Origin: a virus
Reading direction: 5' to 3' (one strand)
Virus record (IMG/VR): IMGVR_UViG_3300042475_004151
DNA: 64,000 bases
A program made the position numbers and the translations under genes. Under the pieces are notes generated by a model. That model was not told the DNA's origin. It saw nothing but the letters and a program-made list of their open reading frames with translations, and made no database searches. Of the stretch, positions 5,259 to 16,144 are shown one piece after another. Within the stretch, counting starts at the first letter, position 1, and every line of letters begins with the position of its first letter.

Positions 5259-7219
5259 AAACCTAAATCTTGTAACTGTTTTATTGTGTCAGCAGTTGAT
5301 GTATGATGTATTCCTACACCACCAGCATCTTTCCATCTTTGAATATTATCTGCTCTATCGTCTATTAATATAGCATTTGGTTTTGCAAATTGTTGTTTTT
5401 GTTCAGCTGCTCTTAATATAAGTTTAGTACCAGGCATATTTCTTTTTACCCAAACAAATTTACCTATTTTAGATGACTCATCTCTTGATGGTGCTGATAG
5501 TAATTCAGGATTGTATTTGTCTATATAATTCCATAATTGTTTTCCATCAGGCATCCATTTTAATTTAATCCAAAATGCAGCACCTGCTTTTTGAATAGGT
5601 TCCCAAAATTGTTTAGGATCAGTACTAAAACTAGCTTCTGTACCAGTTAGATCTTTATATCCTTTATCAAAATCAACTAATACACCATCCATATCACAGT
5701 ATATCTTATATTCTTTATTTTCAGTTTTAACTGCTTCAAATATCTCAGGTTTATATTGACCAAATTGTCTTAATAAAACACCAGCGGCGGCATTAGCTTC
5801 ATTCTCAATTGGTGAACCTGTTGCCCCATCATCTTGTGTTAATGGTTTTAATTCAGCTTGTTTACGATGTACTAATTCATGAGCTAATGTGCGTAAAATA
5901 TCAGCTGTCATTCTTGATCCTCTAACAACTAATAATTTACCTGTGTCTGGTCTGTAAGAACCTAATGAATGCATTTGTTTAGCTACATCTTCATCATCTG
6001 TAAATTCAATTTCAGGTATATCTTGTAATTCAAGTGCTTTAGTGGCAAAATCTATAAAATCACTTACTATATCTGTTTCATTTTCTTCTAGTCCTGCTTT
6101 ATTTAATTTAGAGTAATATTTTGGATCTTCACCTAAATGAGCTAAAGCTATTTTTTTAGCTATTTTTTCATCAGTAGTGTGTTCTTTTTCTGTTTTAATT
6201 CCTTTCTTTAATTCTTCAGGATCAACATCTTTTTCATCTACTGTAGGAACATCAAGTTGAAGTTCAGTTAATGATTTTTGCCACCATTTAATAGTGAATA
6301 AATCTTCTTCAACATTAATCGGTATATTATGTTTAGATAAATATTTAAGTACTTGCTCACGCTGTGTCGGACTATCTCCTAAATTAGGAATCAACATACG
6401 TCTTTCTTGTCCGTCAAATGCATGTTGAGAATATTCAAATGGTATTAATAATGTATTAAGAAAGTTTTCTATTTTTGGAGTTAATTTATAAGGTACTCTT
6501 ATAATTAATTGACCATCTTGTTGATTTTCTTGTAATTGGTCAATACTTAATACTGGTATTCCTAATATATTGAGTATATCATCAAAATCACCTTTCTGAA
6601 TTACTACATCAGGAAAACATCCTTTAAGTAATTCAATATTGTTTAAATATTCATTTTTAGCTTTTGAATACTCAGTTGATTCTTTATCTGGAGTTGATCT
6701 TATTTGTAGTACTGATTGTTTTATTTTATCTATTACTTCACGAACTTGAGTTCCTGATAGTCTTTTATTTTGTGATACTACTTTTTCATTAACAGATATA
6801 GGCATTACTCTTGTACCAAATGCTTTTTGTAATGAAACAAAGTATTGTTGATCTTCAACTTCTTCTTTAGCGCCAGCTACATACGCTATTAGTTCTAAGT
6901 CATTATCCATTCTAGAAAAAATATCTTTAATTGGAGAAGCATTTTTAGATACTTCAACAGAAACTTTAGCCATAGGTGAAGCTGCTAAATATAAGTCCCA
7001 AATACGTTTACTCATACTTGCTGTTATACCATCACGTTCTTTTTGTCCAATTAAAACTATTACTTTAGTAACATATGATCTTGAAGCTAAATCTTTCATA
7101 GACTCATAATGTCCTTCATGTGGTGGTTTAAATCCACCTGGATAGAAACAAATAGCTGGTGGTGTAGCATTTTCACCTTCCTCGTTTAGTTCACTTAGTA
7201 TAGTATTTAGATCAATCAT
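5255..7219 (-). CDS. Multidomain protein: HIGH-type nucleotidyltransferase, small helical domain, HExxH zincin and HAD 5'(3')-deoxyribonucleotidase-like domain
   Basis: PGGFKPPHEGH; KGIKTEKEHT..AHLGEDPKYY; LRTLAHELVH..ENEANA; IYCDMDGVLVDF..LIDDR. Confidence 0.8.
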   Translation of the reverse strand: MIDLNTILSELNEEGENATPPAICFYPGGFKPPHEGHYESMKDLASRSYVTKVIVLIGQKERDGITASMSKRIWDLYLAASPMAKVSVEVSKNASPIKDIFSRMDNDLELIAYVAGAKEEVEDQQYFVSLQKAFGTRVMPISVNEKVVSQNKRLSGTQVREVIDKIKQSVLQIRSTPDKESTEYSKAKNEYLNNIELLKGCFPDVVIQKGDFDDILNILGIPVLSIDQLQENQQDGQLIIRVPYKLTPKIENFLNTLLIPFEYSQHAFDGQERRMLIPNLGDSPTQREQVLKYLSKHNIPINVEEDLFTIKWWQKSLTELQLDVPTVDEKDVDPEELKKGIKTEKEHTTDEKIAKKIALAHLGEDPKYYSKLNKAGLEENETDIVSDFIDFATKALELQDIPEIEFTDDEDVAKQMHSLGSYRPDTGKLLVVRGSRMTADILRTLAHELVHRKQAELKPLTQDDGATGSPIENEANAAAGVLLRQFGQYKPEIFEAVKTENKEYKIYCDMDGVLVDFDKGYKDLTGTEASFSTDPKQFWEPIQKAGAAFWIKLKWMPDGKQLWNYIDKYNPELLSAPSRDESSKIGKFVWVKRNMPGTKLILRAAEQKQQFAKPNAILIDDRADNIQRWKDAGGVGIHHTSTADTIKQLQDLGL

Positions 7220-7941
7220 TTAATAAATTCTTTTACTTTAGTAACAGCTGTAGATGCTGGTGTAAATTTTGGTTTTTGTTTAAGTGCTGATTTGATATCT
7301 TTATTTATTTGTTCAACATCAGCTTTTGATTTAGCTTGTTCTTCAGGTGTTTTTGGTTTACCTTTTGCTTTTGATGTGTCAAAAAATCTACGTTTAATTT
7401 CATTTTCATCAAAATCAATTTCAGCGTCTTTAGGATCATTGTTAATGATAACTAAATTATCACCAAATGCTTGTTGATATGTTTCAATATTATTACTAAT
7501 ATCTCTCCAGGTTCTTAAAACAATACCAGGCATTAATGAACGATCTCTATTAGCATTACGTTCAAGTGATGTTATAGGAGATACATAAATCATAATCATC
7601 ATTGTCTCATATCCTAGTGTTTCTAGTTCTTCTTTCTTTTTGAGAAGTGGTCTAGAAGCCGCTCCAGTACCGTCAATAATAACATCGTTAAGATTAGATA
7701 ATACATCCGTGTATTTTTCTTTAGTTGCTTTTTGAGCTACAGCCATTAATTTAGCTGCTTGAGATAACTGTTCAGGATCAAAATCTTTTTGTTTCATTCC
7801 TATTCCTGATGCTTTAAGTAATTCTTCATAGGTGTCGTCAACATTTATTATTTTAAATTTTGACAATGGTAAAGATTTGGCTATAAATGATTTACCAGCT
7901 CCAGCAGGTCCAGCTAAAAATATTGATTGTGGTGTACTCAT
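7216..7941 (-). CDS. P-loop kinase (zeta-toxin/AAA_33-like)
   Basis: AGPAGAGKS Walker A, INVDD, IIDGTG, SLERNANRDR lid. Confidence 0.75.
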   Translation of the reverse strand: MSTPQSIFLAGPAGAGKSFIAKSLPLSKFKIINVDDTYEELLKASGIGMKQKDFDPEQLSQAAKLMAVAQKATKEKYTDVLSNLNDVIIDGTGAASRPLLKKKEELETLGYETMMIMIYVSPITSLERNANRDRSLMPGIVLRTWRDISNNIETYQQAFGDNLVIINNDPKDAEIDFDENEIKRRFFDTSKAKGKPKTPEEQAKSKADVEQINKDIKSALKQKPKFTPASTAVTKVKEFIK

Positions 7942-10122: not shown

Positions 10123-10371
10123 TTAAACTGATGGAGATAGTTCAGGAGTTGTATCAGGTGTTGGGTCAGGAATATCTATATTTTGAATATTTCCTTCAGT
10201 ATATCTTACTCCATCTGGGTTTAATGTTCCCATTTTATTAGCGAAATAAACGTTCGCTTCTTCCATTGTTGTAAAATCAGTAAATGAATCAATGTATAAA
10301 ATATTATTTCCATCTGTATCATATTGGTCTGGTAATAACCATCCTAAATTTACTCGTTTTAATCTAGCCAT
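10123..10371 (-). CDS. Small hypothetical late protein
   Basis: ORF; ATATTTAT motif upstream at 10394-10401. Confidence 0.65.
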   Translation of the reverse strand: MARLKRVNLGWLLPDQYDTDGNNILYIDSFTDFTTMEEANVYFANKMGTLNPDGVRYTEGNIQNIDIPDPTPDTTPELSPSV

Positions 10372-10455: not shown

Positions 10456-11661
10456 TTATTGTCCTTTAGATGGAAAACGAGTCCATCCAATAATCCATGA
10501 TGGTCTCGCTAAAGCTTCCATTTCTAATTTAGTATATGATACTTGTTTATTACCACTAGCTAATGCTTTTGTTTTAACTTCTAATGAAGTTAATATAGTT
10601 GTTGCTTTGGAAATGAAATTTAAAGTAGAATCATATGCTTGAATTTCATTATTTTCAAACTTACTAACACCATCTTTATATGCTTGAGCAGTTTCATTTG
10701 ATTCCATACTAAATCCACCCTTCATATATCCTAATATTTTAGAATTAGTAATAGTAAACTGTGTTGCTCTTCTCCAACGTAAACCTAAATTATGATTTGC
10801 TAAAGCATAAACATCAAATGGACCTACTAACACCATACCTGTTAATTTAGGATGAGTAGATGGTTGTGCTGGTGATCCAGTACCATCATTATCACATTCA
10901 ATACCATTACCTGCGTCACCATTATCTACAAATTGGGGATCACGTTTTGATATGCTATTAGTAACAGTACCTGTATAACCAAAATCAAAATCGTAGTCAT
11001 CATCTGCAGTTGCGAATGCATATAGATTTTTAGGAGAAACAGTTCCACCAAAAAATTCAAACGCATCATCATTAGCATATACTGTTTGTACATTTTCAAT
11101 TATAGTACCACTACCTACAGCACCTAATGTTAAAGCATTAATTTCTGAGTTGGGTAATGCTGCTACACCAGCATATTCAATTCTTACATATTTTAGAATA
11201 CCACTATTATCAGTATCATTTGTTCCTCCATAAGGACGACCAATGCCGCCTTCAATTGTTGGTTCTGAAGAGCGGTTTGTTTTAGCACGGCCTAGAATTA
11301 CAATACCTCCCCAATCTCCTGGTGATTTTTCACCTGATGATTTACCTGAGGTAAATACAATTGGTTTTGTAATTGTACCTTCAGCTAATATTTGGGCTCC
11401 TCTTTCAATACATAATGCACCTTTCTCAGCAATATCACTTATAATTATAGTACCTGGTTGTATAATAATTTTTGCTCCGTCAGTTATATAGACATATCCT
11501 TTTAAAGTCCATACTTTATCTGATGTTAAAGTGATAGTTGTGTTAATGTTACCACTAAGAGTAGTGTTTGAAGGTACATTAATTGGTCCTTCATTTCCAC
11601 CTAATTCTTTTGTACATGAGAATAATCCAATGATAGCTAATAATGTTAATATCTTTTTCAT
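10456..11661 (-). CDS. Bacteroidota-type surface lipoprotein with predicted beta-helix
   Basis: Lipoprotein signal MKKILTLLAIIGLFS-C; GDWGGIVILG, DNSGILKYVRIEYAG, NDDAFEFFGG, DDDYDFD. Confidence 0.8.
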   Translation of the reverse strand: MKKILTLLAIIGLFSCTKELGGNEGPINVPSNTTLSGNINTTITLTSDKVWTLKGYVYITDGAKIIIQPGTIIISDIAEKGALCIERGAQILAEGTITKPIVFTSGKSSGEKSPGDWGGIVILGRAKTNRSSEPTIEGGIGRPYGGTNDTDNSGILKYVRIEYAGVAALPNSEINALTLGAVGSGTIIENVQTVYANDDAFEFFGGTVSPKNLYAFATADDDYDFDFGYTGTVTNSISKRDPQFVDNGDAGNGIECDNDGTGSPAQPSTHPKLTGMVLVGPFDVYALANHNLGLRWRRATQFTITNSKILGYMKGGFSMESNETAQAYKDGVSKFENNEIQAYDSTLNFISKATTILTSLEVKTKALASGNKQVSYTKLEMEALARPSWIIGWTRFPSKGQ

Positions 11662-13904
11662 AAATTAAAATTAATTGTTAATGAGATTGTTTGTTCGTTA
11701 TTTGTTGTTATTAAGTTGCCTTTAGTTTTTTGATAATATATTGAAGGTTGAGCGAAAACATCGTTTATAGCAATCTTAATTTCGCTTTTATTTATTTTTC
11801 TTAGGTATACTATATCTAAGATATTCCTACTATTTTCAAATATATCTGAGTAGCCTTGAAATCCAACAGCAGATAATCTATCACCTACACGATTATATGT
11901 AATGTTTAGTGTATTTTTATTTTTATGGAAATTTAAACCACCATTTATAATATAATTTGATTGTCCTTGTAGTTGCCTTTTTATATTATTTATCTTTACC
12001 TCAGAGTGAATTAAAGAGGAATTGGTATAAAAATCTAACCAATTATTAATTTTTTTATGTAGTTCAAACTCAATACCATACACTGTTGCTTTGTTTGGGT
12101 TAGTAAAGGTAAGTAATAGGTTAGATGGAACAGATCCGTCAGCTACGATTTGTTCAATTGGTTTGATAAAATTCTTACTAAACAATGCTATAGATACATT
12201 TTCATCTGGTTTAGAGTAGTATTCGTATTTTAAATCTAAATTATATATGTCTGATTTTTCTAATTTGGAATTTCCTAATATTTGTGCATTACGAACAAAA
12301 TCATAGTAGGCAAAATTAGCTACTTCTCTAAATTCAGGACGTGCTAGTGTTTTACTAGCAGATAATCTAAATTTAGTTTTATCTAAATTATAAGATAAAT
12401 TTAATGATGGAAGTACATCTAAATATTTTCTATTTACATTTACTTTTTGACCACTAAAATCAGCTGTGTTAACATTAAATAGATTATATTCTGATCTTAA
12501 ACCAGTATTTAACTTCCACTTTCCAAAATCATTATCATACATTGCATATGTAGTTGCTAAATCAAAATCGGCTTTATACTTATCTGTATTGTTAGTGATT
12601 TCATTTAACATATCTGCTGCCTCATATCTGAATATTCTAGCTTGGAAATTTCTTATTTTTTTAAGATAATTTGCTCCAATTTTTATATTATTAAATACTT
12701 TATTTACACCACCATTAAAACTATTTTCATCCATTATACTCCAAAAACGATATGTATCTCTCCAAGCTACAGTATATGGTTCATTTATACTTAATGATTT
12801 TGTAATTGGATTAACTCTATAATCTGGTTGATCACGTAGCATTAAGTTATAACCTAAATTAAAATCTAATGTTTTAATTTTACCTTCAAATTGAGAGTTT
12901 ATAACTGTTTTAATTACATGATTAGATGCATTACTTCTTACATCTTGAACATTATCATAATTATCCCCATTACGAGTTAGATATAGTTGTTCTATTTGAT
13001 GATTAAATAATGTCTTTAAGCTATATTTGTTTTTACCTATGTAAGTGATATTAGCTAATCCATTTAATAATTGAGTAGTAGAGTAAGAAGTATCTTTATA
13101 CTTATATGCTAACTCAGTTGATGATTGGTAGTCTTGTCTATCAGTATAATTTATTGAATATGAATTTCTATATAATGAACTGAATATTAGATTCCATTTA
13201 TTCTTTTTTAGTCCAAAAGAAAATGAACTGTTTGTATTTGGTATAGAATTAATAATTTTCATTGTAGGTGAATTAACTAATCGAGTATAAGCTCGTTTAT
13301 CACCATTACTACCTATGCGGAATTGATATGTAGAAGGAAAATTTTGTGGGAAAGGAGTATATTCCACGGATTTGAATTTTTGGAACGTAGACACTGTTCC
13401 ATAACTTAATCCTGTGTTTAAAGAAAAAAAACGGCTAGATACATCTTTAGTTGTTATTTGAACTATACCTCCTGCAAAGTCACCTGGTAGATTAGCAGCT
13501 GCTGATTTAGCGATAATAATATTATCAATTAATCCTGCGGGTATAATGTCAAATGAAAATGCTCTTCTATCTGGTTCAGTTGATGGGAGTAGTGTTTTAT
13601 TTAGTAAGGCTAGATTATATCTATCTGCTAAACCACGCACTAATACAAACTTATCATTTTGAATAGTAACACCATTTATTCTTTTAAGAACATCACCAAC
13701 AGTACGGTCTGGTGTTTTTTTAATAAATTCAATTGATATCCCATCAGAAACAACAGAGCTGTTCCTAATTATGTTAAGAACAGCTGCATTGTTATCTTTT
13801 TTAGTTACTGAGGTAACTGTAATATTGTCTAACTTTTTGTTGAATATTGTATCTTGAGAAAATAAAAATAAAGGACACAACAATAAAAATAATAAATGTT
13901 TCAA
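11658..13904 (-). CDS. TonB-dependent outer membrane receptor
   Basis: Signal peptide; plug motifs VRGLADRYN and PGDFAGGIVQITT; barrel motifs LPSLNLSY, KTLARPEFRE, NLDLKYEYY; C-terminal amphipathic strand; TTG start. Confidence 0.9.
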   Translation of the reverse strand: MKHLLFLLLCPLFLFSQDTIFNKKLDNITVTSVTKKDNNAAVLNIIRNSSVVSDGISIEFIKKTPDRTVGDVLKRINGVTIQNDKFVLVRGLADRYNLALLNKTLLPSTEPDRRAFSFDIIPAGLIDNIIIAKSAAANLPGDFAGGIVQITTKDVSSRFFSLNTGLSYGTVSTFQKFKSVEYTPFPQNFPSTYQFRIGSNGDKRAYTRLVNSPTMKIINSIPNTNSSFSFGLKKNKWNLIFSSLYRNSYSINYTDRQDYQSSTELAYKYKDTSYSTTQLLNGLANITYIGKNKYSLKTLFNHQIEQLYLTRNGDNYDNVQDVRSNASNHVIKTVINSQFEGKIKTLDFNLGYNLMLRDQPDYRVNPITKSLSINEPYTVAWRDTYRFWSIMDENSFNGGVNKVFNNIKIGANYLKKIRNFQARIFRYEAADMLNEITNNTDKYKADFDLATTYAMYDNDFGKWKLNTGLRSEYNLFNVNTADFSGQKVNVNRKYLDVLPSLNLSYNLDKTKFRLSASKTLARPEFREVANFAYYDFVRNAQILGNSKLEKSDIYNLDLKYEYYSKPDENVSIALFSKNFIKPIEQIVADGSVPSNLLLTFTNPNKATVYGIEFELHKKINNWLDFYTNSSLIHSEVKINNIKRQLQGQSNYIINGGLNFHKNKNTLNITYNRVGDRLSAVGFQGYSDIFENSRNILDIVYLRKINKSEIKIAINDVFAQPSIYYQKTKGNLITTNNEQTISLTINFNL

Positions 13905-13946
13905 TTAAGTGAATTTGATTCACTAATAATTATTTATCAAATGTTA

Positions 13947-14729
13947 TTAAATTATCTTAATACTAATAGGTAATGATTCAGTCATAGGCTTAGAATTTGG
14001 ATTTTCTAATTTATATATTTTATATATATTCATGAACATTTCAAAATTATCATCAATATTACTTATATGTTTTAGTTCCCATCCTTTACCTTGTATCTTA
14101 TCTCCTTTACCTTCACTACGTGTAGATGCTTTAAGCCATAGAATACCTGTCTCTTCAATTGTAGTATCATGAGTTTCATTCCATGCTTTAGCATAAGCTG
14201 CTAATTGTAAATTATGTGATGTATGAAGTGAATTAGATGTTTTAATATCTAATAACCATAATTTATCATTTATTTTACAAATAATATCTGTAGTACCAGC
14301 GTATTTAAATTCATCTGAGAATACATGATATTCAGTTACTACTAATTCTGGTTTGTGTGTGTTCCAAAAGTCTGCAAATTTAAGAATCATTTTCCATGTG
14401 TCTAGACTATATAAAGCTTTTCCATATTCATCTAACCAATGGATTTCACCTCCATTAAGAAAGGTATCAACTGCATTATGTACTTGAGTACCTTCTGAAG
14501 CTGCTTTGTTAGCTATTATTTCACTATTATGACCTACATCTTTTAACCAGTTATGGAAAAATTGATTTTTAGGAAAGAAATTTAATACTGATGTAACAGA
14601 TGGATAATATTCTTCTCCGCGTCTGTAAAATCTACTATCTAAAACATTTACTTGTTTATCTCCCTCATTGTATTCTACAATTCGTTTGATTTTTGGATCT
14701 TTAATGATATTAACGTTTTTGTCTATCAT
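13947..14729 (-). CDS. PD-(D/E)xK exonuclease
   Basis: YPSVTSVL, GTQVH, YAGTTD, LLDIKTS, QLAAYA. Confidence 0.8.
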   Translation of the reverse strand: MIDKNVNIIKDPKIKRIVEYNEGDKQVNVLDSRFYRRGEEYYPSVTSVLNFFPKNQFFHNWLKDVGHNSEIIANKAASEGTQVHNAVDTFLNGGEIHWLDEYGKALYSLDTWKMILKFADFWNTHKPELVVTEYHVFSDEFKYAGTTDIICKINDKLWLLDIKTSNSLHTSHNLQLAAYAKAWNETHDTTIEETGILWLKASTRSEGKGDKIQGKGWELKHISNIDDNFEMFMNIYKIYKLENPNSKPMTESLPISIKII

Positions 14730-15664
14730 GCTAATTCGAGTTTTTTGTAAATTAGTTCACCTAAACTTAATTGTTCGGCGTCATGAACTAACGTGGTGAA
14801 TTTTTCAAATCCCATATCAGAGGGATCCTTGTCTTGCAAATCAATTAAATAAACGTCTTTACCTAGATTGAGTAATTGTTCAGCGTATTGTAAAGCATCT
14901 TTTAAAGCGTCCTTATCTAAAGATACGTATACTGTTTTAACTTGTGGATCAATTAGTTTCATCATTAATGCTCTTGGTATTGTTTTACCTAATAATGGTA
15001 CTGCATTGCGTTTAATAGCAATAGCATCAAACATACCTTCACATAATATAACAGGAACATTCCAATTAATGAAATATTCAAGACCAATCATTTCATTCTT
15101 ATTACATTTAGGAGCATCATATTTTTTTGTTGAGTCAGGATTTAAATCCCTGGCTATAAAATAATTTATACTTCCGTCTTTATCATAAGATGGTATAATA
15201 ACTCTATTGGCATATCTGCCTTCTTCACAATAACCTATATTATATTTCAATATATCTGACTTGGTGATACCTCGTTTTTTTAAATACATTAAAGCGTGTT
15301 TAGCGACGATATCTGTACGTTGTAGGTTAATAAGTGGTTTATATTCTTTAGGTAAATGTATTTTATTAATAACAATTTCTTTCTCTTCTTGAGTTGATGA
15401 AAAATTCAACATTGATTTCAACTCAGCTATCTTATATGTGGGTGACTTTGCTTTTTTAAATAAACCTACTAATGTTTTTCCTTTAGCATTACAAACCCAA
15501 CAATGCCAAAAATTTTCTCCTTTAGAGTTAGGCACAACATTTACTTCCAATTTCATTTTATGATGTGTACAGAAAGGACACTTATAAGCATAGTTATTAT
15601 TACTAGTTTTTTTACCAGTACCTAACACACTATTTATTGTATGTAATAAGGCCGCGTTAGTCAT
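14726..15664 (-). CDS. DNA primase (Zn finger plus TOPRIM)
   Basis: CPFC..H..CWVC zinc domain; YLKKRGI; LCEGMFDA; SLDKDA; KDPSD. Confidence 0.9.
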   Translation of the reverse strand: MTNAALLHTINSVLGTGKKTSNNNYAYKCPFCTHHKMKLEVNVVPNSKGENFWHCWVCNAKGKTLVGLFKKAKSPTYKIAELKSMLNFSSTQEEKEIVINKIHLPKEYKPLINLQRTDIVAKHALMYLKKRGITKSDILKYNIGYCEEGRYANRVIIPSYDKDGSINYFIARDLNPDSTKKYDAPKCNKNEMIGLEYFINWNVPVILCEGMFDAIAIKRNAVPLLGKTIPRALMMKLIDPQVKTVYVSLDKDALKDALQYAEQLLNLGKDVYLIDLQDKDPSDMGFEKFTTLVHDAEQLSLGELIYKKLELA

Positions 15665-15691: not shown

Positions 15692-16144
15692 CTAAGCAAA
15701 GTCTTTACGGAAATACTTTCCAGCTATATTATCATTGTAGCTATTGTCTGTGAATAAAACATTGTATGTTATTTGTTCTTGCAATTCAAAATATGTAAGT
15801 TGTTTTTTGTTTTTAGCTAGATGTATTATAACACGTTCAAATTTATCTTCACCTAATAACTTAATATCAGTTAATAATTCTTTAGATGAACCATAATATG
15901 ATTTCCATCCACTATCTACTTGATCAATTCGTGTTGTAGCTCGACGTCCTGGACCTGATTGTTCAGCGATTTCTTTTTTGGTGAGTTTTTTCTTTTTATT
16001 ATGAATAAATGCTTTTTTACCTATATAAAACTTATTTGTTTCTAAATTAGTAATTATATAAGTGAAACCATAATATCCATTAATTTGATCTTCAGGAAAT
16101 GGTTCTACACTTCCATCATCTAAATACCATAACCATCTTTTCAT
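15692..16144 (-). CDS. GIY-YIG (Seg-like) nuclease
   Basis: YGFTYIITN..FYIGKK..WKSYYGSS..YNDNI. Confidence 0.75.
   Translation of the reverse strand: MKRWLWYLDDGSVEPFPEDQINGYYGFTYIITNLETNKFYIGKKAFIHNKKKKLTKKEIAEQSGPGRRATTRIDQVDSGWKSYYGSSKELLTDIKLLGEDKFERVIIHLAKNKKQLTYFELQEQITYNVLFTDNSYNDNIAGKYFRKDFA

Follow-up and report, generated by a model that had tools for sequence, protein, structure and literature searches.

Three cellular gene pairs provide the closest described counterparts of the locus analysed here. In Flavobacterium johnsoniae, the phoBR operon contains, next to OprP, the genes Fjoh_0545 and Fjoh_0546 ('FII'; 'PUSIV' cluster), whose strong induction is specific to phosphate depletion and does not follow iron or nitrogen limitation (Lidbury et al., 2020; PMC8115612). 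The first encodes a protein with Plug, OMP_b-brl_3 and CarbopepD_reg_2 domains and the second a pectin-lyase-fold outer-membrane lipoprotein that is abundant in the exoproteome (PMC8115612). BT4055/BT4056 of B. thetaiotaomicron have been proposed to form a non-SusC transporter whose cap, a non-SusD 'lid', is a lipoprotein of the pectin-lyase superfamily; BT4056 is 40% identical to Fjoh_0546, and the proximity of transporter and lid is conserved in 621 genera (Price and Arkin, 2023; 10.1101/2023.03.17.533168). This transporter-lid family also includes ElpS of Caulobacter crescentus (10.1101/2023.03.17.533168; PMC2996285), a surface-anchored lipoprotein of the same superfamily that is encoded adjacent to the TonB-dependent receptor CCNA_00170 and induced by phosphate starvation. 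A T2SS-dependent protease releases ElpS from the surface, and the protein has been linked to alkaline phosphatase activity (Le Blastier et al., 2010; PMC2996285).

Two further systems share part of this design. In Bacteroidota, the SusC/SusD (and PusC/PusD) complexes of the outer membrane likewise place a TonB-dependent barrel under a surface lipoprotein lid. Among phages, cyanophages carry the phosphate-acquisition genes pstS and phoA under host PhoBR control, which is the same concept of a host Pho-regulon uptake gene in a lytic phage, with a host-type Pho box in many copies. The cyanophage genes encode a periplasmic binding protein and a phosphatase, whereas the genes described below encode an outer-membrane transporter and a surface lipoprotein of Bacteroidota.

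The window (the whole 64,000-nt stretch of viral DNA analysed, from IMG/VR record IMGVR_UViG_3300042475_004151) carries a TonB-dependent transporter gene and a beta-helix lipoprotein gene at 10456-13904 on the minus strand, with both ORFs at the coordinates given in an earlier sequence-only reading. The pair corresponds to Fjoh_0545/0546, BT4055/4056 and ElpS by domain architecture, gene order, gene context and the descriptions in the respective papers rather than by direct alignment. Its features and those of its flanks are as follows.

10123-10371, minus strand: small phage ORF (82 aa) in the downstream flank, without a family match
10456-11661, minus strand: gene for the surface 'lid' lipoprotein (P0002), 401 aa, Beta_helix_4 family (PF28492, precomputed for the 100%-identical database protein P0123)
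11614-11625, minus strand: lipobox LFSC with putative lipidated residue Cys16, then T-K-E-L-G-G, read from the translation
11658-11661, minus strand: 4-bp ATGA overlap of the transporter stop codon with the lipoprotein start codon, read from the sequence
11658-13904, minus strand: gene for the TonB-dependent transporter (P0001), 748 aa, an intact ORF matching Pfam Plug and OMP_b-brl_3 and, partially, TIGR01782
11661-13430, minus strand: beta-barrel, residues about 159-748 (PF14905, OMP_b-brl_3, E 4.5e-25)
13467-13748, minus strand: Plug domain, residues 53-146 (Pfam PF07715, 31.7 bits against a cut-off of 23.9)
13806-13829, minus strand: TonB-box-like motif DNITVTSV, residues 26-33, a by-eye resemblance in the translation, in a region where the AF2 model is poor
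13854-13904, minus strand: signal peptide, residues 1-17, with a TTG start, a hydrophobic N-terminus ending FSQ and a predicted cleavage site
13905-13946, minus strand: 42-nt spacer from the exonuclease stop to the transporter start, read from the sequence
13909-13923, minus strand: palindrome GTGAATCAAATTCAC (2 matches against 0.4 expected by chance)
13925-13933, minus strand: box ATAATTATT, an exact box that occurs only once on the minus strand of the window
13931-13946, minus strand: degenerate repeat TAACATTTGATAAATA, a one-mismatch remnant of TAAYA-N6-TAAYA that abuts the exonuclease stop codon
13947-14729, minus strand: PD-(D/E)XK/Cas4-like exonuclease in the upstream flank, a phage replication/recombination gene (weak Pfam and NCBIfam matches)
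14726-15664, minus strand: DnaG-type primase in the upstream flank (DNAG_N, Toprim and TIGR01391 matches), with a gene order as around the primase of Flavobacterium phage immuto

The transporter is intact, as the sequence-only reading had held, with a plug recovered by Pfam and a full barrel recovered by Pfam, AF2 and Foldseek. The AF2 barrel consists of long antiparallel strands with a pLDDT of 80-90; the plug, which is the most conserved block in an alignment of phage and bacterial homologues, is poorly modelled (pLDDT <50). The best Foldseek matches are haem and siderophore receptors, full-length solved 22-strand TonB-dependent transporters aligned over about 700-800 columns (E 1e-21 to 1e-17), and the barrel is thus assigned 22 strands through family and structural matches rather than by a strand-by-strand count on the coordinates. 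The start codon is TTG where close homologues have ATG at the same codon, and the DNITVTSV motif resembles enterobacterial TonB boxes such as DTITVTA. Homologues at 73-100% identity were identified, several of them on 160-190 kb contigs bearing phage genes.

Like Fjoh_0545, the window transporter combines Plug and OMP_b-brl_3, with CarbopepD_reg_2 added in bacterial and long phage forms. The compact layout noted from the sequence is confirmed by these comparisons: the plug directly follows the signal peptide, no CarboxypepD_reg or CarbopepD_reg_2 domain is matched by Pfam between the two, and the CarboxypepD_reg-type extension of about 72 aa found in bacterial and many phage homologues is absent precisely after residue 17. 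The extension is present in phage forms of 824-845 aa, and its distribution requires at least five changes within the phage clade. Two bacterial inserts (12 and 23 aa) are also missing, the loops of the phage transporter are shorter than bacterial ones, and typical bacterial forms exceed the window protein by about 180 aa. An N-terminal extension domain is required for function in some SusC-type transporters. A SusC/SusD identity for the pair was considered and rejected: neither Pfam nor NCBIfam yields a SusC or SusD family match, and a beta-helix lid on an OMP_b-brl_3-type barrel differs from the all-helical SusD fold and the SusC-type barrel of SusC/SusD.

The partner lipoprotein belongs to a family with 6234 representative clusters at E <= 0.001. 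Its PF28492 assignment is taken from the precomputed database annotation of the identical protein, and the same family is precomputed for all listed homologues. The motif C-x-K-(E/D)-L-G-G is kept across phage copies and is, we presume, a partial fit to the surface-export signal of Bacteroidota lipoproteins. AF2 models a right-handed, pectin-lyase-like beta-helix of all-beta coils (pLDDT 89); the best Foldseek matches are weak, to beta-helix enzymes and tailspikes, none with E <= 0.001. The beta-helix fold and the 4-bp gene overlap thus bear out the sequence-only description of an overlapping acidic beta-helix lipoprotein, with the qualification that the mature protein is only mildly acidic (pI 5.1). 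Asp, Glu, Asn and Gly make up most of its invariant positions, and profile and structure searches recognised no catalytic motif or enzyme family.

Co-folding of the transporter barrel with the lipoprotein, a check that the sequence-only reading had proposed, gave an ipSAE of 0.83, compared with 0.00 for the best of three controls. In a benchmark, 58 of 80 solved complexes and 2 of 110 mismatched pairs attained this ipSAE mark; because custom-supplied alignments were used, these counts apply only approximately to the present co-fold. At least 92% of contacts agreed between runs, partner pLDDT was at least 91, and the lipoprotein contacts fall on every second turn of the barrel, the long turns that correspond to extracellular loops. 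The lipoprotein is therefore predicted to sit as a lid across the extracellular loops of the transporter. We found no solved complex from this transporter/Beta_helix_4 lipoprotein family, which makes it unlikely that the co-fold passed by recalling a similar structure. Conservation among phage copies is highest at the predicted interface (0.91 and 0.90 for its residues), followed by the extracellular loops (0.81) and the membrane strands (0.68). The confident interface predicted for the phage pair differs from the AlphaFold-Multimer model of BT4055/BT4056, which has few confident contacts.

Phage genes lie on both sides of the pair. All family-matching ORFs of at least 100 aa in the window are on the minus strand, and each of the few plus-strand ORFs is overlapped by a longer minus-strand ORF. 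A SegE-type GIY-YIG endonuclease gene also lies upstream, and genes for a baseplate wedge protein, gp25, a tail lysozyme and a 5'-3' deoxyribonucleotidase are found farther away. The GC contents of the transporter (27%) and lipoprotein (33%) genes bracket that of the window (29.6%), compared with 38-57% for bacterial sister genes, and the placement of the pair among phage genes of like orientation and composition stands. The nearest isolate is Flavobacterium phage immuto, which shares the primase-exonuclease order and whose annotated exonuclease has 68% nucleotide identity to that of the window; immuto has no TonB receptor gene at the corresponding place. The window encodes neither TonB nor ExbBD and no other phosphate-related auxiliary gene (e.g. 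phoH or pstS).

The cassette recurs widely among uncultured phages. At least 257 IMG/VR viral contigs contain the lipoprotein gene, and those of the 80 fetched viral loci that extend far enough all have the transporter gene immediately upstream. The 4-bp overlap is found in nearly all of these loci, with a short gap in a few, and every copy not interrupted by a contig end is intact. Two independent contigs, of 168 kb and 180 kb, have the pair behind this same exonuclease gene, a 179-kb contig has it near a gp25 baseplate gene, and near-identical copies occur on contigs of 160-190 kb. TonB receptors had been called uncommon in phage genomes, a view in need of qualification: this pair is absent from cultured phages (INPHARED), but its lipoprotein gene is present on at least 257 IMG/VR contigs. 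The preprint on BT4055/BT4056 describes no phage copies (Price and Arkin, 2023; 10.1101/2023.03.17.533168).

In both gene trees the phage copies group as a single clade (97 and 100 SH-aLRT), placed among Chitinophagales/Cytophagales sequences and with identical bacterial sisters (L006, L007, L016 and L025) in each. The phage copies thus have one main origin. Phage and bacterial proteins share 40-72% identity for the lipoprotein and 29-65% for the transporter, and the phage stem branch of the transporter tree is long (0.78 changes per site), which suggests that transporter specificity may have shifted after capture. Values of dN/dS are 0.08-0.15 for transporter and lipoprotein alike, and both genes are under purifying selection. 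The pair thus has the attributes of an auxiliary gene set: it is a host-derived, putative uptake system that is flanked by phage genes, grouped in one phage clade among bacterial sequences and maintained by selection.

About 70 of 80 bacterial loci have the transporter gene immediately ahead of the lipoprotein gene. Neighbours include genes for a histidine kinase with an OmpR-type regulator (phoBR-like), Porin_O_P, PHO4 and PhoU_div, a setting shared with Fjoh_0545/0546, which have phoB/phoR and a phosphate-selective porin gene beside them. Flanking the closest cellular locus (L005) are genes for a T9SS purple-acid-phosphatase-like enzyme and for one of the alkaline-phosphatase superfamily. 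These neighbourhoods, together with the published work (PMC8115612; 10.1101/2023.03.17.533168), substantiate the suggestion of the sequence-only reading that similar pairs lie near phosphate-starvation regulators in Bacteroidota. Unlike Fjoh_0545/0546, the window pair is phage-borne, has no regulator or porin gene beside it, lacks the N-terminal CarboxypepD_reg-type domain and retains only a degenerate operator. ElpS is alphaproteobacterial and only distantly related to the phage lipoprotein.

That operator is seen more clearly in other copies. An exact TAAYA-N6-TAAYA repeat, with an 11-bp period, is present in 22 of 53 phage loci, in most of them at -64 to -78, at a density of 3.9 per kb against a background of 0.039 per kb. 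It also precedes 22 of 66 bacterial transporter genes and six of 10 phosphate porin genes, and none of 33 housekeeping neighbours (0.012 per 200 nt expected). We therefore regard the 11-bp-period TAAYA repeat as a candidate Pho box of Bacteroidota to which PhoB may bind. The exact repeat is missing upstream of the window transporter, and in 21 of 53 phage loci a relaxed form of the box ATAATTATT, [AT]TA[AG]TTAT, is found between -20 and -33. The degenerate operator and the 42-nt spacing suggest that the window cassette is probably read with the phage replication genes and not via host PhoB.

Taken as a whole, the evidence favours, at a probability of roughly 60%, a two-gene cassette from the phosphate-starvation (Pho) gene set of Bacteroidota that a large group of uncultured phages has retained as an aid to phosphorus uptake. 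In the infected cell, the Sec, Lol/surface-export and BAM machineries of the host would insert the 22-strand transporter in the outer membrane and bring the lipoprotein to the cell surface, where it would form a lid across the extracellular loops. The lid would capture a phosphorus-containing ligand, host TonB-ExbBD would power its passage through the plug, and the extra phosphorus would support replication of a large phage DNA genome in phosphorus-poor water. The most likely use of the pair is thus phosphorus scavenging by infected cells, with uptake, the substrate, expression during infection and a benefit to the phage each presumed from the data above. Several points weigh against this reading: the window copy lacks both the exact Pho-box-like repeat and the N-terminal extension, the specificity of the transporter may have shifted, no other phosphate-related auxiliary gene is present in the window, and the pair could help only if outer-membrane protein biogenesis is completed within the latent period. 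Many phage copies appear to retain a host Pho-box-like operator, and the sub-lineage of the window has lost the N-terminal extension, has a degenerate operator and carries the cassette 42 nt behind the primase-exonuclease genes. A more specific version, which we put at slightly under even odds, is that transporter and lid form a mobile cassette that moves among diverse large, probably freshwater, phages of Bacteroidota and possibly back into bacteria, re-equipping the infected surface for phosphorus scavenging; some lineages would remain under the host phosphate switch, and others, including that of the window, would be stripped of operator and extension and tied to phage replication genes.

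The sequence-only reading had left open whether the pair serves uptake or receptor remodelling and exclusion. TonB-dependent transporters are common phage receptors, so the pair might replace or mask a host transporter-lid that serves as one and thereby block superinfection or the sticking of virions to debris, and the long phage stem branch (0.78) and shorter loops would fit an altered surface. Loops that are more conserved than membrane strands are the opposite of what an arms-race surface would show, however, and a mere decoy would not need the plug, the TonB-box-like motif and the lid, all of which are under purifying selection. Many copies also retain a nutrient-responsive operator. Purifying selection and the strong conservation of the predicted lid-docking loops favour uptake, and we consider remodelling unlikely. 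Only slightly less unlikely is a working importer for a substrate other than phosphorus, such as a metal or metal chelate, for which the Pho setting would reflect co-regulation only. Most characterised TonB-dependent transporters import metal chelates, haem and siderophore receptors are the closest structures, a cation would be bound by the conserved acidic face of the lid, which is rich in Asp, Glu and Asn, the invariant Asp, Glu, Asn and Gly residues of the lid recall calcium-binding beta-helix proteins, and the literature found names no known ligand for any family member. Against this, the homologous-looking Fjoh_0545/0546 respond to phosphate depletion and not to iron or nitrogen limitation (PMC8115612), in bacteria the pair has genes for phosphate porins, phosphate transporters and phosphatases as neighbours, and the Pho-box-like repeat is shared with phosphate porin genes. 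A metal-phosphate complex as substrate would fit both the phosphorus and the metal readings.

It is also conceivable, at an appreciably lower probability than either of these, that the lipoprotein does the main work, with the transporter secondary, and that ElpS-like shedding raises extracellular phosphatase activity and frees phosphate near the infected cell. The release of ElpS and its association with alkaline phosphatase activity (PMC2996285), the plentiful Fjoh_0546 in the exoproteome (PMC8115612) and the higher phage-bacteria identity of the lipoprotein than of the transporter are in line with this idea. Yet none of the fetched phage loci separates the two genes, which are translationally coupled, the co-fold interface is predicted with confidence and strongly conserved, and no enzymatic signature was recognised in the lipoprotein. 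Least probable by far is an artefact, be it host DNA wrongly joined to a phage contig during assembly or a passenger gene in decay. One short contig (L003, 3.7 kb) does appear chimeric, with the last ~375 transporter residues 100% identical to those of the window and roughly 60% identity before them. The junctions nevertheless recur on the independent 168-kb and 180-kb assemblies, and an assembly chimera was rejected on the recurrence of the pair in viral contigs (at least 257 with the lipoprotein), the single phage clades, the low dN/dS, the fully phage-like GC content and the intactness of all uncut copies.

The phage phosphate-acquisition genes pstS, phoA and phoH act in the periplasm or cytoplasm, and the literature searched yielded no report of phage-borne auxiliary genes for an outer-membrane phosphorus importer. 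A TonB-dependent importer and lid kept by phages would, if our preferred reading of phosphorus uptake is true, extend phage metabolic reprogramming to the cell surface and be the first outer-membrane transport system to serve as a phage auxiliary gene. The TAAYA repeat, which phage cassettes share with their bacterial relatives and with phosphate porin genes, offers a directly testable candidate Pho box. The window pair represents a trimmed natural version of a transporter-lid family whose members are among the most strongly phosphate-induced Flavobacterium proteins, and such compact phage versions would, on the same reading, make the substrate of a transporter family found in 621 genera approachable. 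The pair would also suggest that large Bacteroidota phages, probably in fresh water, are strongly constrained by their supply of phosphorus.

The TonB-dependent transporter gene (the receptor) and its partner lipoprotein gene lie in a run of minus-strand phage genes.

5255-7219, minus strand, 654-aa protein with a C-terminal 5'-3' deoxyribonucleotidase domain
7216-7941, minus strand, polynucleotide-kinase/ATPase-like protein, next after the deoxyribonucleotidase protein
10456-11661, minus strand, lipoprotein gene (401-aa ORF)
11658-13904, minus strand, TonB-dependent transporter gene (748-aa ORF)
13947-14729, minus strand, PD-(D/E)XK exonuclease directly upstream of the receptor (profile match)
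14726-15664, minus strand, DnaG-type primase in the upstream flank (profile match)
15692-16144, minus strand, SegE-type GIY-YIG homing endonuclease just upstream of the primase (E 3e-29)

The family-matching ORFs of the window are all on one strand, GC is about 30% throughout, and genes elsewhere in the window encode a baseplate wedge, gp25, a tail lysozyme, a deoxyribonucleotidase, a DnaB-like helicase, DUF932 and glycosyltransferases. The cassette has a similar composition (27% GC for the receptor and 33% for the lipoprotein, versus 29.6% for the phage and 38-57% for the nearest bacterial genes), in keeping with the sequence-only reading, which placed the pair among phage genes of the same orientation and similar AT content. 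The nearest isolate, Flavobacterium phage vB_FspM_immuto (160 kb), has the same primase-exonuclease order but carries other genes at the pair's site. A SegE-type endonuclease gene occupies the same place in related contigs.

Near-identical pairs are found behind the same exonuclease on independent 168-kb and 180-kb contigs, and a 179-kb contig carries a 74%-identical pair with other phage genes as neighbours. A scan of IMG/VR identified relatives of the lipoprotein on at least 257 viral contigs. Within the 80 viral loci fetched, the transporter gene is directly upstream wherever the contig reaches, the 4-bp overlap is kept in nearly all, and every cassette copy uncut by contig ends is intact. 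Because the pair recurs with its junctions on independent contigs, in intact copies and with phage-like GC, a chimeric host fragment is excluded for practical purposes, and we regard any artefact as very improbable. Across about 70 phage loci the cassette has at least 30 upstream and 36 downstream neighbour families and thus behaves like a moron among phages. We also rejected a decaying passenger gene, given the intact uncut copies and pairwise dN/dS values of 0.08-0.15 for both genes between the window and ten phage relatives, wherever dS was estimable.

Among 50,697 GenBank phage records, the pair is present in no cultured phage, and relatives occur only in a 634-kb uncultured megaphage and a few short faecal fragments (two for the lipoprotein, four for the receptor), all of them distant (26-46% identity). 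The earlier statement that such receptors are uncommon in phage genomes needs qualifying: it fits the cultured phages, but the lipoprotein alone is on at least 257 IMG/VR contigs. In the megaphage (LR745206.1:77559-81267; database matches H7 and H12), lipoprotein and transporter genes (32% and 27% identity) adjoin in reversed order, lipoprotein first, probably as an independent capture of a similar pair. A further locus, L003:273-3655 (3.7-kb ENA contig k141_190740), encodes an 824-aa transporter (P0061) whose last approximately 375 residues, together with the lipoprotein fragment that follows, are 100% identical to those of the window. The N-terminal half of P0061 is diverged (roughly 60% identical by eye) and includes a CarboxypepD_reg extension, and the L003 leader has a Pho-box-like repeat; either two cassette variants have recombined here or the contig is an assembly chimera.

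The receptor is intact and compact and lacks an N-terminal extension, as had been proposed, with Pfam matches to Plug (residues 53-146; 31.7 bits versus a cut-off of 23.9) and OMP_b-brl_3 (residues 406-743; E 4.5e-25) and a partial match to TIGR01782. Its start codon is TTG, a choice supported by close homologues that use ATG at the same codon. Behind the 17-residue signal peptide, DNITVTSV (residues 26-33) looks by eye like a TonB box. An AlphaFold2 model built from 18 homologues has a barrel with pLDDT 80-90 and a poorly modelled plug, and its top Foldseek matches are the solved full-length transporters PhuR, Cir, FepA and FoxA (E 1e-21 to 1e-19 over approximately 700-800 alignment columns). 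Phage transporters form two length classes, one of 824-845 aa with a CarboxypepD_reg-type N-terminal extension and one of 747-759 aa without it, to which the window belongs; presence or absence of the extension requires at least five changes on the transporter tree. A terminator scan identified a hairpin (12-bp stem plus T-rich run) at 13757-13785 on the minus strand, inside the receptor coding region at about codons 40-50, which may be due to chance.

The receptor gene does overlap a beta-helix lipoprotein gene, by four bases (ATGA). The lipoprotein has a lipobox (LFSC; Cys16) and is modelled as a right-handed beta-helix (pLDDT 89); it had been described as acidic, and it is, if only mildly (mature pI 5.1). 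Behind the lipobox, phage lipoproteins share a C-x-K-(E/D)-L-G-G motif, which we take to be a partial fit to the Bacteroidota surface-export signal. The Pfam and NCBIfam versions scanned contained no family for the lipoprotein, PF28492 (Beta_helix_4, a recent Pfam family) being assigned through an identical database protein. PHROGs held no family for either protein, and a PDB sequence search returned no match to either and no complex or structure of the transporter-lid family. For the lipoprotein, Foldseek returned nothing beyond generic beta-helix matches, of which none reached E <= 0.001, and structure thus offers no functional clue. A representative library contained many 1400-2400-aa proteins (P0243-P0250 among them) with two to five tandem Beta_helix_4 copies that are 39-47% identical to the phage lipoprotein, so this domain is also employed in giant multi-domain, presumably surface, proteins.

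Co-folding of the two proteins, suggested earlier as a check, argues for their binding. With barrel residues 150-748 (the plug being left out to fit the size limit) and mature lipoprotein residues 29-401 as input, the predicted complex scored 0.83, versus 0.00 for the best of three controls. This mark was attained by 58/80 solved complexes and 2/110 mismatched pairs, a calibration that is approximate because alignments here were self-supplied. Three runs had at least 92% of contacts in common, with partner pLDDT of at least 91. Barrel residues in contact with the lipoprotein are 259-264, 318-320, 364-385, 426-438, 482-486, 532-541, 589-595 and 682-685, which on the strand map of the AlphaFold2 barrel correspond to every second turn, the long ones. 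In the model these turns are the extracellular loops, and the beta-helix is therefore predicted to span the outer mouth of the barrel as a lid. Among phages, conservation in both proteins peaks at the predicted interface residues (0.91 and 0.90), a measure not fully independent of the co-fold, since the model was given the alignments.

We then asked where the pair comes from. A prokaryote scan limited to one genome per species identified hundreds of relatives; of the best 80 loci, about 70 have a transporter homologue immediately upstream of the lipoprotein homologue. The pair is thus a conserved two-gene unit of Bacteroidota that also occurs in Ignavibacteria-like genomes. In maximum-likelihood trees, phage lipoproteins form one clade (SH-aLRT 97), as do phage transporters (SH-aLRT 100), and the nearest bacterial sequences are the same in both trees, from Chitinophagales MAG loci (L006, L007, L016 and L025). 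These topologies indicate that both genes were captured jointly and essentially once, with the direction of transfer assuming a root among the bacterial sequences. The stem branch of the phage transporters measures 0.78 changes per site, and identity to most bacterial homologues is 29-42% for the transporter and 40-64% for the lipoprotein.

One cellular pair resembles the phage copies far more than any other does (72% identity for the lipoprotein and 65% for the transporter). It lies on a 17-kb Spirosomataceae MAG contig of 36.5% GC (L005:1-13013; JBILRJ010000032.1) and is flanked by genes for a histidine kinase, an AraC-type response regulator, a T9SS-secreted purple-acid-phosphatase-like enzyme and an alkaline-phosphatase-superfamily enzyme, on account of which the locus is truly bacterial. 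L005 is nested within the phage clade in both large trees, yet an AU test on a reduced 23-row transporter set did not reject the tree with L005 outside that clade (p 0.47). The L005 pair thus either belongs to the closest donor lineage or was passed back from phage, and the locus points to a candidate host group.

The neighbours of the bacterial pairs point to a connection with phosphate. In Chitinophagaceae, the pair is flanked by genes for a Porin_O_P phosphate-selective porin, a PHO4-type phosphate transporter with PhoU_div, a histidine kinase with an OmpR-type regulator, and DUF5690; in Chryseobacterium, a kinase-regulator pair is divergent from the transporter. These loci match the F. johnsoniae phoBR cluster, where the order is OprP, PhoR, PhoB, Fjoh_0545, Fjoh_0546 (PMC8115612). 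The suggested nearness of such pairs to phosphate-starvation regulators in Bacteroidota is therefore borne out, both in the neighbourhoods and in the literature. The transporter Fjoh_0545 contains pf07715, pf13715 and pf14905, and Fjoh_0546 ('FII') is a pectin-lyase-fold lipoprotein and a major exoprotein; both are strongly upregulated on phosphate depletion and not on iron or nitrogen limitation (PMC8115612). The F. johnsoniae lipoproteins FI-FIII are related to Caulobacter ElpS (PMC8115612). ElpS is a surface lipoprotein induced by phosphate starvation; cells later release it, and it has been linked to alkaline phosphatase activity (PMC2996285). Price and Arkin assign B. thetaiotaomicron BT4055/BT4056 to this family, with 40% identity between BT4056 and Fjoh_0546; in their proposal the lipoprotein is a lid of non-SusD type, and the two genes lie side by side in 621 genera (10.1101/2023.03.17.533168). 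The grounds for equating the window pair with Fjoh_0545/0546, BT4055/4056 and ElpS are domain architecture, gene order and context.

Upstream regions were tested for direct repeats of 11-bp period (TAAYA-N6-TAAYA). The repeat is present in 22/53 distinct phage leaders, mostly at -64 to -78 from the start (3.9 per kb versus 0.039 per kb elsewhere in the same loci), and within 200 nt upstream of 22/66 bacterial transporter genes, an underestimate because ATG-only ORF calls clipped some N-termini. It also precedes phosphate porin genes (6/10) and kinase/regulator genes (4/39), and is found at none of 33 neighbouring epimerase, nucleotidyltransferase and transketolase genes (0.012 expected per 200 nt). 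In Sediminibacterium (L029, approximately 6925-7020) and in bacterial locus L015 (approximately 7050-7180), the transporter is preceded by as many as six GTAACA units in tandem, spaced at exactly 11 bp. Bacterial repeats abut a TAnnTTTG element, presumably the Bacteroidota -7 promoter box. With its PhoB/OmpR-operator geometry, the repeat is a candidate Pho box of Bacteroidota that PhoB may bind. A second conserved box, [AT]TA[AG]TTAT in relaxed form, occurs at -20 to -33 in 21/53 phage leaders and is rare in bacteria (2/66).

In the window, the short spacer upstream of the receptor contains three elements.

13905-13946, 42-nt spacer from exonuclease stop to receptor start
13909-13923, 15-bp perfect palindrome GTGAAT-NNN-ATTCAC, ending 5 nt ahead of the receptor start codon
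13925-13933, ATAATTATT box at the usual distance from the receptor start
13931-13946, TAACATTTGATAAATA, a one-mismatch remnant of the repeat

The approximately 35 nt usually found between repeat and box are missing here, and the exact repeat is present in none of the eight loci that share the placement behind the exonuclease. Together with the lost N-terminal extension, the degenerate repeat and short spacer suggest that the cassette of this sub-lineage has become uncoupled from the host phosphate switch and would be read through from the replication genes. Around the pair, scanning for consensus sigma-70 promoters and for terminators did no better than shuffles, and its sole hairpin lies inside the receptor gene. 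The palindrome could act as an operator or form an RNA hairpin across the start region, and a similar GTGAAT..ATTCA(C/T) is found at the same place in relatives behind the exonuclease (L085, L092). As a general promoter of the window phage, the ATAATTATT box was rejected (4 occurrences versus 10 expected, once on the coding strand).

We favour the view, at a probability of roughly 60%, that the pair is an auxiliary importer by which the phage would scavenge phosphorus. The window encodes no TonB, ExbB, ExbD, phoH or pstS, so the transporter would depend on host TonB. The deoxyribonucleotidase and polynucleotide-kinase-like proteins represent nucleotide salvage, which is likewise relevant to how an infected cell manages its phosphorus. 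An importer of this kind for another substrate is considerably less probable, though it comes first among the alternatives.

The sequence-only reading had offered uptake or receptor remodelling/exclusion, and conservation bears on that choice. Mean identity to the window's residue among 33 phage representatives is 0.79 in the plug and 0.81 in the extracellular loops, versus 0.68 in the membrane strands and 0.61 in the periplasmic turns, which resembles a working ligand-handling surface and not one under attack. With the low dN/dS of both genes, these conserved loops favour uptake; surface remodelling or exclusion is kept as an unlikely rival, a little behind import of another substrate. The release of ElpS and its association with alkaline phosphatase activity would fit a lipoprotein that is shed as a phosphatase helper, which we consider less likely again. 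Phosphorus import remains the preferred reading.

Phage genes for phosphate acquisition, such as cyanophage pstS and phoA, are already familiar; the window pair differs from these in being an outer-membrane importer with a lid. A search of a limited literature collection returned no description of a phage-borne TonB-dependent transporter or of a phosphate-linked phage transporter. The cellular family is known in outline, and what is new is that a complete TonB-dependent outer-membrane importer and its lid are widespread phage cargo.
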